A stretch of DNA of 64,000 nt from Shigella phage ESh24, in sequence record ON528734; one strand, 5' to 3'. Every line of letters starts with the position of its first letter. The stretch's first letter is position 1. The notes beneath the pieces are model-generated. The model ran no database searches, had not been told where the DNA came from, and saw nothing but the letters and a program-made list of their open reading frames with translations. Both the position numbers and the translations under genes were made by a program. Positions 23,687 through 63,875 of the stretch are shown in pieces.

Positions 23687-23712
23687 TAATTTGGGCAAAT
23701 GAGGATATTGAA

Positions 23713-29189: not shown

Positions 29190-29648
29190 ATGAAATACAT
29201 GACTGTTACTGATCTGAATAATGCAGGCGCTACTGTTATTGGTACAATCAAGGGCGGTGAGTGGTTTTTGGGAACTCCGCATAAAGATATTTTATCTAAA
29301 CCTGGATTTTACTTTTTAGTGAGTAAATTAGATGGTCGTCCATTTAGTAATCCATGTGTGTCTGCACGATTTTATGTGGGTAATCAGCGTTCTAAGCAAG
29401 GATTCAGCGCAGTTCTAAGTCATATTCGTCAACGCCGGTCTCAACTTGCGCGTACTATTGCAAATAACAATGTTCCATACACAGTATTTTATCTGCCTGC
29501 TTCTAAGATGAAACCTCTGACGACGGGATTTGGTAAAGGTCAGTTAGCTTTAGCGTTTACTCGTAATCATCATTCTGAGTATCAAACACTTGAAGAAATG
29601 AACCGTATGTTGGCTGATAACTTTAAATTTGTTTTACAGGCATATTAA
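29190..29648 (+). CDS. ndd: Nucleoid disruption protein Ndd
   Basis: 152 aa from ATG 29190; position and size as T4 ndd. Confidence 0.75.
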
Positions 29649-33367: not shown

Positions 33368-33569
33368 TTCAAAATCCGATTATTTTAATTCTCTCAATGA
33401 TAAAGATAAAAATCTAATACGGCATTTTATTGTTGAGATGGGATATACTGACACACGTGATTTAAGAGAACATATATTTGAATGTGGTGTAGCTAAAAAG
33501 TTTTCATTCACATGCAAATGTTTGAGAGAGGTAATTCAGCACTATGAACAATTTAGTCGCAAAACATAA
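33351..33569 (+). CDS. Hypothetical protein (start unclear: TTG 33351 or internal ATG)
   Basis: ORF lacking an obvious ATG with RBS. Confidence 0.35.
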   Translation: MAREINSKSDYFNSLNDKDKNLIRHFIVEMGYTDTRDLREHIFECGVAKKFSFTCKCLREVIQHYEQFSRKT

Positions 33570-33652
33570 TTTTAATAAAGCTTCTGTCCATAAAGATAAG
33601 AAGAAAGCGTTTAAAGAATCTAATCGCAAACAGAAACATAAGGGGAAGGTCT

Positions 33653-33932
33653 ATGATTATTGATTCTCAATCTGTGGTTCAATATACAATCAAAATTGAT
33701 ATTCTAGAAAAGCTATATAAGTTTTCTACCAAATTTATACCATTCAATTGTTAATGAATTAGTTGAAGAATTACATCTTGAGAATAACGATTTCTTGATT
33801 GGAACTTATAAAGACCTCTCAAAAGCAGGATATTTTTACGTAATTCCAGCTCCAGGAAAAAGTATTGATGATATATTAAAAACTATAATGATTTACGTCC
33901 ATGATTACGAAATTGAAGATTATTTCGAATGA
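33653..33932 (+). pseudogene. Apparent frameshifted ORF (33 aa + 59 aa in +1 frame), possibly disrupted arn-like gene
   Basis: ATG with AGGGGAAGG RBS opens a 33-aa frame ending at 33754; the +1 frame continues open to 33932 with no start codon of its own; combined about 92 aa. Confidence 0.3.
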
Positions 33933-34081
33933 GTCATAATCTTGAAAAGGTAATCGAGCACAATGTAGCTCAGGAACGTGAGTCGTTCAAGGAATTCGTA
34001 GAAAAAATTTTTGAAGAAAATAACACAGACCAGTTTACAAATCAAGCGTCTGATGATATTATAACAAAGTCAACTAATTGA
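33929..34081 (+). CDS. Hypothetical acidic protein (50 aa)
   Basis: ATG overlapping the previous stop. Confidence 0.4.
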   Translation: MSHNLEKVIEHNVAQERESFKEFVEKIFEENNTDQFTNQASDDIITKSTN

Positions 34082-34093
34082 GTGGTATAGTTA

Positions 34094-34366
34094 ATGAATA
34101 AAAACATTGATACAGTTCGTGAAATTATTACTGTTGCATCTATTTTGATTAAATTTTCCAGAGAAGATATTGTTGAGAATCGTGCTAATTTTATTGCATT
34201 TCTGAATGAGATTGGAGTAACGCATGAAGGTAGAAAGTTAAATCAGAATTCATTCCGTAAAATTGTTTCTGAATTAACCCAAGAAGATAAGAAAACCCTC
34301 ATCGACGAATTCAACGAGGGTTTTGAGAGTGTATATCGATATCTAGAGATGTATACGAACAAATAA
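34094..34366 (+). CDS. asiA: Anti-sigma-70 protein AsiA
   Basis: 90 aa, MNKNIDTVREIITVASILIKF..., matches recalled T4 AsiA. Confidence 0.9.
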   Translation: MNKNIDTVREIITVASILIKFSREDIVENRANFIAFLNEIGVTHEGRKLNQNSFRKIVSELTQEDKKTLIDEFNEGFESVYRYLEMYTNK

Positions 34367-35023
34367 TTATTTAGCCCTTCCTAATATTCTGGCCGCCTGA
34401 GCACATATTGATTCAAGGCGGTCATTACTTATATGATCATTTCTATACCAGTACATGGTTATCGTTCCAGCATAGATATTATCCAAATTAAAATATGGAC
34501 AACTGTACATGTAGTTTATTTCGGGAGTAGGCTTTTTAGTTGGTAAAAAAGCAAATTTTGAGTTGGAATAATAATGACGTCCATTTAAATGAACTATATA
34601 TTCATCCATAGTTTTATCAACAGGATATCCTCCAAGTGATTTTTCACTTATTGTTGAAGGTAATTTTCCTTCATATGCTATAATATCAACAAAATAGTTT
34701 AAGTTTTTAGGGCGGAAAGAATACACCGCACTAAAGTCTGCCTCAGATGATATATGAACTATCTGGAGTTGTTCCAGGGCGACAGATTCAAAGCGTGCAT
34801 TTCTTTCCTTTTCAATAATTTCACTGTATGTTTCATACTTTGATTGCTTATAGTACTCAAAGAAACTATCTCCCCTATACCAAACAATCGCCATTATAAA
34901 CAAAAGAATTACGACAGCTACCCGGGAAGCAAGAACCTTCCCGGTAGCATTATCTTTGAACAAGCGATCTAGAACACCCAACAGAATATCAGAGGGCGAA
35001 AATGATATTCTAGGTGCTGCCAT
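34367..35023 (-). CDS. t: Holin T
   Basis: 218 aa; N-terminal transmembrane domain plus large periplasmic domain; matches T4 T. Confidence 0.93.
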   Translation of the reverse strand: MAAPRISFSPSDILLGVLDRLFKDNATGKVLASRVAVVILLFIMAIVWYRGDSFFEYYKQSKYETYSEIIEKERNARFESVALEQLQIVHISSEADFSAVYSFRPKNLNYFVDIIAYEGKLPSTISEKSLGGYPVDKTMDEYIVHLNGRHYYSNSKFAFLPTKKPTPEINYMYSCPYFNLDNIYAGTITMYWYRNDHISNDRLESICAQAARILGRAK

Positions 35024-48162: not shown

Positions 48163-48188
48163 GGGGACCCTAGAGGTCCCCTTTTTAT
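48163..48188 (+). terminator. Rho-independent terminator after gene 32
   Basis: GGGGACC-CTAGA-GGTCCCC plus T-run. Confidence 0.75.
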
Positions 48189-55220: not shown

Positions 55221-55896
55221 ATGAGCACAGTTTTTAATACAAATCCAGTTGATGTTTTAAAAGAACCTATGTTTTTTGGTTCAGGTCTTGGTATTGCGCG
55301 TTATGATATTCAGCGGCATCGAGTATTTGAAGAACTTACTGAGAAGTCTTTATCATTTTTCTGGCGTCCTGAAGAAGTAAACTTAATGATGGATGCTGCG
55401 CAATTTAATAAGCTTCCTCAGTATCAGCAAAATATTTTTACTAATAACCTGAAGTATCAATCACTTTTGGATAGCATTCAGGGTCGTGCGCCATCTGCTG
55501 TACTTATGTCATTAATTTCAGACCCGAGTCTTGATACATGGGTTGCTACATGGACTTTTAGTGAAACTATTCACAGTCGTTCATATACACATATCATGCG
55601 AAATCTTTATACTGATCCATCGAAGGTATTTGATGAGATTGTATTAGATGAAGCTATTATGAAACGCGCTGAATCCATTGGACGTTATTATGATGATGTT
55701 CTGATTAAAACCCGTGAATGGGAAAATGCTAAAGAATTTGTAGAACTAGCTAAAGAATCTCCTGATGCCGACTTTCGTTTAAACAGGGCTATTAAACAAG
55801 AAGCCGAAGCTAAACGCGCTTTAATGAAATCTCTTTACCTCTGTTTACACGTTATTAATGCCTTAGAAGCTATTCGTTTTTATGTATCTTTTGCGT
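55221..55896 (+). CDS. nrdB: Ribonucleotide reductase small subunit NrdB, exon 1
   Basis: 225 codons ending ...FYVSFA followed by the intron; boundary placed by analogy, accurate to a few nt. Confidence 0.8.
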
Positions 55897-56981
55897 AAAA
55901 TGCGCCTTTAAACGGTAACGTTTATCGAAAACTCCTTTAATTGCTGGAAAGTCCTTTATAGGAAAACTAGCAGCCAAGGTTTTGCTTGCACCTTTAATTA
56001 GTATAATATGATTATACTTTTAAGAGGATGCACAATTGAACTATAGAAAAATTTGGATAGATGCTAACGGACCTATACCTAAAGATTCTGATGGAAGAAC
56101 ATACGAAATCCATCATAAAGACGGTAACCGTGAAAATAATGATTTAGATAATTTGATGTGCCTTTCTATACAGGAACATTATGATATACATTTAGCTCAA
56201 AAAGATTACCAGGCTTGTCATGCTATAAAGCTTAGAATGAAATATTCTCCTGAAGAAATTTCTGAATTAGCTTCTAAAGCCGCAAAATCTAGAGAAATCC
56301 AGATTTTTAATATCCCTGAAGTACGAGCTAAAAATATTGCCTCTATTAAATCTAAGATAGAAAATGGTACATTTCATCTTTTAGACGGTGAAATACAGCG
56401 TAAATCTAATTTAAATAGAGTTGCATTAGGTATACATAATTTTCAACAAGCTGAGCATATTGCAAAAGTTAAAGAACGCAATATTGCAGCTATAAAAGAA
56501 GGTACTCATGTATTTTGCGGTGGTAAAATGCAGTCAGAAACTCAATCAAAACGGGTAAATGACGGTTCACATCATTTCTTGTCAGAAGACCATAAGAAAA
56601 GAACATCAGCAAAAACATTAGAAATGGTTAAGAACGGGACCCATCCTGCACAAAAAGAAATCACATGTGATTTCTGCGGTCACATTGGTAAAGGTCCTGG
56701 ATTTTATCTAAAACATAATGACAGATGTAAATTAAATCCAAATAGAATTCAATTGAATTGTCCATATTGTGATAAGAAAGATTTATCACCATCAACATAT
56801 AAACGATGGCACGGCGACAATTGCAAAGCAAGGTTCAACGACTAGTCTTCGGACGTAGGGTCAAGCGACTCGAAATGGGGAGAATCCCTCTGGGATTGTG
56901 ATATAGTCTGGTCTGCATAGTAATATGTAGCAGTTCATAAGAGAACGGGTTGAGAATTAGCGAGCTCAATCGAACATAACG
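55897..56981 (+). mobile_element. nrdB group I intron (about 1085 nt) carrying a full-length I-TevIII gene
   Basis: 3' end ...TCGAACATAACG parallels the td intron 3' end; exon 2 frame resumes immediately after. Confidence 0.75.
56036..56845 (+). CDS. I-TevIII: Homing endonuclease I-TevIII (HNH), full length
   Basis: 269 aa; HNH motif EIHHKDGNRENNDLDNL; C-terminal Cys-rich zinc finger. Confidence 0.8.
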   Translation: MNYRKIWIDANGPIPKDSDGRTYEIHHKDGNRENNDLDNLMCLSIQEHYDIHLAQKDYQACHAIKLRMKYSPEEISELASKAAKSREIQIFNIPEVRAKNIASIKSKIENGTFHLLDGEIQRKSNLNRVALGIHNFQQAEHIAKVKERNIAAIKEGTHVFCGGKMQSETQSKRVNDGSHHFLSEDHKKRTSAKTLEMVKNGTHPAQKEITCDFCGHIGKGPGFYLKHNDRCKLNPNRIQLNCPYCDKKDLSPSTYKRWHGDNCKARFND

Positions 56982-57484
56982 GTACCTTTAACTTCCATAA
57001 GAACATGGAAATCATGGAAGGTAATGCCAAGATTATGAAGTTCATTGCACGCGATGAACAGCTTCACCTTAAAGGCACCCAATATATTATTCGTCAGCTT
57101 CAATCCGGTACTGATGGTGATGAATGGGTTAAAATTGCCAAAGAGTGTGAACAAGAAGCAGTTGATATTTTCATGGAAGTTAACCGCCAAGAAAAAGATT
57201 GGGCAGTTCATTTATTTAAAGATGGCGATGTTCCTGGATTAAATACAAATAGCATGTGGAGCTTTATTGATTACTTAACTGTATCTCGTATGAAACAGTG
57301 TGGTCTTCCATGCCCGATTACCGATGCTCCGGTTAAACATCCATATCCTTGGATTCGTGAATACCTTAATTCTGATAATGTTCAATCCGCGCCGCAAGAA
57401 GTAGAACTGTCATCTTATCTTGTTGCACAGATTGATAATGATGTTGATGATAAAGTTATGATGAGTTTTAAAAAATACTTTTAA
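56982..57484 (+). CDS. nrdB: Ribonucleotide reductase small subunit NrdB, exon 2
   Basis: In-frame continuation ...NMEIMEGNAKIMKFIARDEQLHL...; C-terminus matches recalled T4 NrdB. Confidence 0.8.
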
Positions 57485-63060: not shown

Positions 63061-63638
63061 AAGCGAGTACAGTACTTCAAATTGCATATTTAGTATCACA
63101 AGAATCAAAATGTTGCTCCTGGAAGGTAGGAGCAGTAATTGAAAAGAATGGACGTATTATTTCTACTGGGTATAATGGTTCGCCTGCCGGTGGTGTGAAC
63201 TGCTGTGATTATGCTGCCGAGCAAGGTTGGTTGTTGAATAAACCTAAACATACTATCATTCAAGGTCATAAGCCTGAATGCGTATCATTTGGTTCAACTG
63301 ATCGCTTTGTCTTGGCGAAAGAACACCGTAGCGCTCACTCTGAATGGTCGTCTAAAAATGAAATTCATGCTGAACTAAATGCAATTTTGTTTGCTGCACG
63401 AAATGGTTCTTCTATTGAAGGTGCTACTATGTATGTAACACTTTCTCCTTGTCCAGATTGTGCAAAAGCGATAGCTCAATCTGGTATTAAAAAGCTGGTT
63501 TATTGCGAAACATACGATAAAAATAAACCTGGCTGGGATGATATTCTGCGAAATGCAGGTATTGAAGTGTTTAATGTTCCTAAGAAAAACTTGAATAAGT
63601 TAAACTGGGAAAATATCAACGAATTCTGTGGTGAATAA
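63057..63638 (+). CDS. cd: dCMP deaminase
   Basis: 193 aa; zinc-binding motifs HAE and PCPDC. Confidence 0.95.
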   Translation: MKASTVLQIAYLVSQESKCCSWKVGAVIEKNGRIISTGYNGSPAGGVNCCDYAAEQGWLLNKPKHTIIQGHKPECVSFGSTDRFVLAKEHRSAHSEWSSKNEIHAELNAILFAARNGSSIEGATMYVTLSPCPDCAKAIAQSGIKKLVYCETYDKNKPGWDDILRNAGIEVFNVPKKNLNKLNWENINEFCGE

Positions 63639-63875
63639 TGAAATTTCGTTTGGTAAAGCTCACAGCAATTAGTTCTTATTCTAATGAGAACATCTCGTTT
63701 GCTGTAGAGTATAAGAAATATTTTTTTCTCTAAATGGAAACAGTATTATAAAACTGATTGGACTAGTATTGATAGACCATATAGTTGGAAATCTGATTTA
63801 GAAAAATGCCAAAAATTACTTTCCACTCTTAAAGAACGTGGAACAACTCATATTAAAACTGTAATAGGTAAATAA
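63638..63875 (+). pseudogene. Apparent frameshifted ORF at a T7 homopolymer run
   Basis: 31-aa frame stops just after T-run 63721-63727; the +1 frame continues to 63875 with no start codon; one fewer T would give a single ORF of about 78 aa. Confidence 0.35.

Follow-up and report, generated by a model that had tools for sequence, protein, structure and literature searches.

Arn of phage T4 inhibits McrBC restriction of unglucosylated T4gt DNA (PMC12707154), and it is a DNA mimic that binds H-NS (PMC12707154, PMC6936261). According to a 2026 preprint, T4-Arn also inhibits the PUA-Cal-HAD defence, for which N70 is required, and both T2-Arn, which carries S70, and the T4-Arn N70S variant fail to inhibit it (PMC12871103). 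In another preprint T4 Arn was named as a potential trigger of PARIS, without demonstration (PMC10802264).

The DNA analysed here, referred to as the window, is a stretch of 64,000 nucleotides from Shigella phage ESh24 (ON528734). It is a Tequatrovirus (T4-like) segment, in an orientation opposite to the direction of the T4 map. Close to asiA it contains a short reading frame which the initial annotation had described as split by an apparent +1 frameshift, and which had been connected with T4 Arn by its combined length and its location. The features of this locus, together with a second frameshift found elsewhere in the window, are listed in Table 1.

Table 1. Features of the arn locus of the window and of the second private frameshift (positions are those of the window)
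Feature	Position	Strand	Evidence and remarks
39-aa upstream ORF, Pfam DUF7230	33544..33663	+	Overlaps the arn start by 11 nt; hypothetical protein in RB3, ECP52 and JY01
Shine-Dalgarno-like sequence AAGGGGAAGG	33640..33649	+	3 nt before the arn ATG; read directly; identical in RB3, CHD94UKE2 and PM136
arn codons 1-24 (M1-F24), native frame	33653..33724	+	100% protein identity with ECP52 Arn 1-24; DM_Arn profile positions 1-18
TTTT run, the frameshift lesion	33722..33725	+	One extra T, TTT in relatives; from alignments
Nine out-of-frame codons (S T K F I P F N C) and premature TAA (33752-33754)	33725..33754	+	
arn codons 25-92 and TGA, stranded in the +1 frame	33726..33932	+	Stop-free; no private amino-acid changes
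Junction peptide of full-length Arn, FLPNLYHSIVNELVEELHLENNDFLIGTYK			
asiA.1, 50 aa	33929..34081	+	phrog_3762, 1-50/50; its ATG overlaps the arn TGA (ATGA, 33929-33932)
Sigma-70-like promoter match inside asiA.1, TTTACA-17-TATTAT with TG (extended -10)	34034..34062	+	Consensus match only; about 30 nt before the asiA start
asiA (anti-sigma factor, 90 aa), intact, synteny anchor	34094..34366	+	Pfam AsiA, 144.5 bits; T4-like position
Holin t	34367..35023	-	Downstream of asiA
Second private +T frameshift, T6 to T7	63721..63727	+	Splits a conserved 78-aa ORF (63638..63875), phrog_2010

From the ATG at 33653, frame 0 runs for 33 codons and ends at the premature TAA, giving a written product of 33 aa; the ribosome-binding site, the start and the end of this frame were all confirmed as initially annotated. 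In the +1 frame there are no stops between 33708 and the TGA at 33930-33932, an open stretch of 74 codons of which about 58-59 follow the frame-0 stop. This second frame had been described as open to 33932 without any start codon. The first part of this description was correct and the second was not, as the frame contains a TTG at 33795, from which 45 codons remain, and an ATG at 33888, from which 14 remain. No Shine-Dalgarno-like sequence was found upstream of either codon, and neither looks like a genuine start.

When one T is deleted from the TTTT run, a 279-nt ORF encoding a 92-aa protein results. The 24 native codons and the 68 codons of the +1 frame add up to the 92 aa of T4 Arn (NC_000866, 161312..161590, 279 nt), in agreement with the size given in the initial annotation. 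In a nucleotide alignment to RB3, CHD94UKE2 and PM136, these relatives have AAG-TTT-CTA in place of the AAG-TTTT-CTA of the window, with flanks that are 96-100% identical. Because there is exactly one extra T within otherwise near-identical aligned sequence, the split is not a chance pattern of ORFs, and the suspected +1 frameshift is a 1-nt insertion.

The restored protein matched the Pfam family PF22134 (DM_Arn) with 179.8 bits (cut-off 26) over the whole profile (1-79/79), and PDB 3WX4, the crystallised T4 Arn, with E = 1.6e-55 and 89 identical residues out of the 92 aligned (1-92). It also matched phrog_3151, annotated as 'inhibitor of MrcBC restriction'. The 33-aa product as written, by comparison, scored 25.6 bits against DM_Arn, which is below the cut-off, and covered only positions 1-18 of the 79 in the profile. 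The gene order arn.1 - arn - asiA.1 - asiA - t is that of T4 and was also found in RB3, ECP52 and JY01. Comparison with T4 arn and its neighbours, of the kind that the initial annotation had proposed as a check, showed that T4 itself has a 279-nt arn CDS followed by asiA.1 and asiA. Downstream of asiA and holin t, the window carries a T2-type gp38 adhesin.

The DM_Arn match, the 3WX4 match and the synteny beside asiA make the assignment of the gene as an Arn orthologue a sound one, which supports the identity suggested initially. With T4 Arn (NP_049868) the locus shares its gene position, its start context and, once one T is removed, its length of 92 aa. It differs from T4 Arn in the interruption after codon 24 and in three substitutions of the restored protein, which has I13, S70 and I74 for F13, N70 and V74. 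Ser70 (codon 33860-33862) is shared with T2-Arn. However, T2 differs from T4 at positions 13, 70 and 80 (PMC12871103), whereas the window differs at 13, 70 and 74 and carries the frameshift in addition. S70 was present in most of the relatives sampled, and the N70 of T4 is the minority state. A restored Arn would be expected to function as T4 Arn does, as a DNA mimic inhibiting McrBC on non-glucosylated hmC DNA and binding H-NS. As deposited, the locus matches the family profile and has the expected position upstream of asiA.1-asiA, and it does not have the single ORF of about 92 aa. If the extra base is not an error, it is a disrupted member of the arn family or a pseudogene.

The distribution of the extra T was determined by several searches. 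When positions 33570-34093 were compared by megablast with 50,697 phage records, 490 Tequatrovirus records were matched, the best of them at 98.7% identity, and nearly all covered 523 bases against the 524 bases of the query. In the four top matches that did span 524 bases, the extra base was located in the spacer between asiA.1 and asiA, not in arn. An 81-nt probe centred on the site matched 439 phage records, of which none (0/439) was ungapped. By tblastn with the restored protein, arn was detected in 484 records, in every one of which a single location covered at least 80% of the protein (484/484), and a single full-length arn match was seen in 60 of the 60 matches listed, which were sampled evenly down the ranking of the 484. 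In every annotated relative examined, arn is a single 279-nt CDS. Homologues consisting of two separate genes, which the initial annotation had considered, were therefore not what was found.

In the contig collections of IMG/VR (viral), JGI (metagenome) and GTDB (genome), the exact string of the TTTT allele was not found, whereas that of the TTT allele occurred in 3 viral contigs. An index of 153 billion genes had no exact record of the 33-aa product or of the 45-aa ORF from the TTG, and exact look-ups of the 33-aa, 45-aa and truncated 31-aa products, gp38 and the holin gave no independent assembly of the phage. By these searches, the extra T is private to the window.

Apart from this base, the arn copy of the window appears to be in good condition. 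Among 11 relatives, representing 9 distinct alleles, arn was always 279 nt long and ungapped. Its variable codons comprised 19 synonymous and 5 conservative non-synonymous ones, which indicates that the gene is under purifying selection. The arn of the window has one private substitution, which is synonymous (codon 45), and there are no stops in the 68 stranded codons. This lack of decay in the rest of the gene means that the lesion is either very recent or an artefact.

That the split frame results from an unprogrammed single-base lesion, whatever its origin, is close to certain in our assessment. The initial annotation had proposed a pseudogene or a sequencing error; the insertion behind both proposals is confirmed in the sequence, and the chances of the two origins are near even. 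A real and recent null mutation is given slightly better than an even chance. Against such a mutation, arn nulls that were readily tolerated should show up among the 484 genomes.

The other main explanation is a sequencing or assembly artefact, in which an error of base calling or of the consensus added the T to the run and the arn of the phage is intact at 92 aa; we consider this quite possible, at somewhat less than an even chance. It is consistent with an allele that is unique among the 439 and the 484 records and absent from three further collections, with a gene that is otherwise perfect, the private synonymous change being the sole other difference, and with the purifying selection on arn in all relatives. 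The total absence of decay would also be expected from an artefact. Furthermore, the second unique +T lies within the same 64 kb and is also in a T-run that is followed by C, so one technical cause would fit both. This second insertion splits the 78-aa ORF, whose function is unassigned in phrog_2010, into a 31-aa part and a downstream part. The T7 allele was found in 0 of 203 phage records, and only two other 7-base runs occur in the window. That both private frameshifts add a T to a T-run preceding a C suggests a common technical cause.

The whole window was also compared with four relatives (ECP52, RB3, EO1 and JY01), and this comparison argues against an artefact. The private N/S ratio of the window was 0.12, as synonymous-biased as that of the relatives, which ranged from 0.11 to 0.29 (35 ORFs, 24.8 kb). 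The count of private indels that are not multiples of three was ordinary, with 5 and the 63721 site in the window and 2-6 in the relatives. When the ORFs of the relatives were searched by tblastn, only two ORFs in the 64 kb were split in the window while being kept whole in every aligned relative, namely arn (4/4) and the 78-aa gene (3/3). A consensus error from TTT to TTTT would, in addition, be unusual given the many longer homopolymer runs in the window (349 of 5 nt, 67 of 6 and 3 of 7), as a private length change was found in only two of these longer runs, the T6 runs at 48182 and 63721. The more general suggestion of a globally error-prone record was also considered, and was not supported by the private N/S, the private indels or the split-ORF count relative to the four relatives.

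Further private indels that are not multiples of three were located at 23690 (+T), 48182 (-T), 49465 (+G) and 50459 (-TT), in comparison with the relatives aligned there, three or four per site. All four were intergenic or at the extreme 3' end of a gene; one, for example, follows gene 32 in a terminator-like run, and another precedes td in a promoter-like AT stretch. In EO1 (OQ223305.1), dexA is split at about 18253 by a private +A in an A-run, and in ECP52 (ON782582.1) ndd is extended by a private +T at about 29634. Isolated frame-altering indels in accessory genes therefore occur in other deposited genomes too. An apparent 1-nt difference in ndd near 29637 proved to be a peculiarity of ECP52. 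The ndd of the window is normal and ends at 29648, with 168 aa from the first GTG and 152 aa from the ATG giving MKYMTV...

Another observation from the window concerns nrdB (55221-57484), which is interrupted by an insert of about 1.09 kb (about 55896-56983) containing a 269-aa ORF (56036-56845). The I-TevIII homing endonuclease that RB3 has annotated in its nrdB intron is of the same size, and ECP52 and JY01 are without the insert. At the gathering threshold, no Rfam family was detected in the whole window, and this includes the absence of any group I intron model at nrdB.

It could also be that the insertion is genuine and was favoured by selection, the loss of arn allowing the phage to evade a host defence that responds to this DNA mimic. 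As S70 would already make Arn useless against PUA-Cal-HAD, its loss might be of benefit on some hosts, and rare +1 slippage on UUU-U could still provide traces of wild-type Arn. We regard selected loss as very unlikely.

Programmed +1 ribosomal frameshifting, which the initial annotation had put forward, or transcriptional slippage, either of them yielding full-length Arn from the two frames, is more improbable still. What makes it conceivable is that tRNA-Phe re-pairs perfectly after a +1 slip on UUU-U, that the product would be exactly the wild-type Arn, and that any +1 shift within 33708-33751 would rescue the downstream frame. However, the two-frame layout was found in 0 of 484 relatives, each of which has at least 80% of Arn in one place, and the allele in 0 of 439 at the DNA level. 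The A-site codon in frame 0 is UCU, which is the commonest Ser codon here (34%) and not a slow one. The sequence TTT-T occurs in frame 74 times in the long ORFs of the window, so the motif alone is not an efficient shift site. No Shine-Dalgarno-like motif was found within the 30 nt upstream of the site, the 121 nt of 33700-33820 fold at -14.8 kcal/mol, which is not more stable than shuffled sequences (z = 0.07), and no Rfam family reached its threshold. As for transcriptional slippage, four Ts are too few for efficient slippage of RNA polymerase. Of the three hallmarks of a programmed +1 site (conservation, a slow A-site codon beside a slippery P site, and a stimulatory element), none was found.

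The textbook example of +1 recoding is E. coli prfB (RF2). The window resembles it in needing a +1 shift and in having a P-site tRNA that could re-pair after the slip. It differs from prfB in lacking an in-frame stop or rare A-site codon, an upstream Shine-Dalgarno-like stimulator and a conserved shifted layout. A private allele of this kind, with neither a slow A-site codon nor a stimulatory RNA structure, lends programmed frameshifting no support.

The idea of two small genes in their own right, of 33 aa and about 45-59 aa, or of a T-run acting as a phase-variable contingency switch, can practically be dismissed: two genes have as their sole support that two ORFs can be drawn, whereas annotated relatives have the single CDS, none of the 484 tblastn records gave a partial match, the downstream part is without a credible start (no Shine-Dalgarno sequence for the TTG, 14 codons left after the ATG) and the N-terminal peptide falls short of the DM_Arn cut-off, and for a switch a run of 3-4 nt is too short for a high rate and the TTTT allele was seen in no other genome. 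Reinitiation at the ATG at 33754-33756, which overlaps the premature stop, was also considered, and that frame ends after two codons.

The reading we prefer is that of an ordinary arn in which a short T-run spanning codons 24-25 has one T too many, an unprogrammed change. The extra T would have come from strand slippage in the T-run during phage replication, and very recently so, as the remainder of arn is undecayed. In this respect the locus can be compared with the classical frameshifts in runs of T4 (Streisinger slippage, rII), with which it would share one additional base in a run, a possibly leaky null and a non-essential gene. It differs from the classical rII hot spots in that the run is short (TTT to TTTT), the classical ones being longer.

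The resulting allele would be Arn-null or at most very leaky, with a rare +1 slip of tRNA-Phe on UUU-U giving a trace of wild-type Arn. The 33-aa product, M1-F24 followed by nine foreign residues, is almost certainly inactive, because only 18 of the 79 DM_Arn positions are left in it and its score does not reach that of the family cut-off. Translation of asiA.1 would normally be coupled to that of arn, and this coupling should be abolished by the frameshift, since the premature stop is 175 nt upstream of the overlap between the arn stop and the asiA.1 start. The sigma-70-like promoter match inside asiA.1 may free asiA transcription from arn and asiA.1 and so buffer asiA, in a region where the number of promoter matches is not above the shuffled expectation.

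The loss of Arn could be tolerated because the DNA of the phage should be glucosylated hmC, so that Arn would be required only if glucosylation has failed. The window has genes for a dCMP hydroxymethylase-like protein and for a glucosyltransferase, as identified with the RB3 annotation. In T4, arn is non-essential.

The gene arn, its product and its genomic position were already well known, and there is nothing unusual in a dispensable accessory gene having a one-base frameshift. For annotation, 33653..33932 should be recorded as arn, marked as either disrupted or suspected of a sequence error, instead of as two hypothetical ORFs. The main use of the finding is in this annotation and as a quality flag, together with the frameshift at 63721-63727. 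If the lesion is real, the phage would be a natural Arn-null T-even phage and a possible control for studies of McrBC, H-NS, PARIS and PUA-Cal-HAD.
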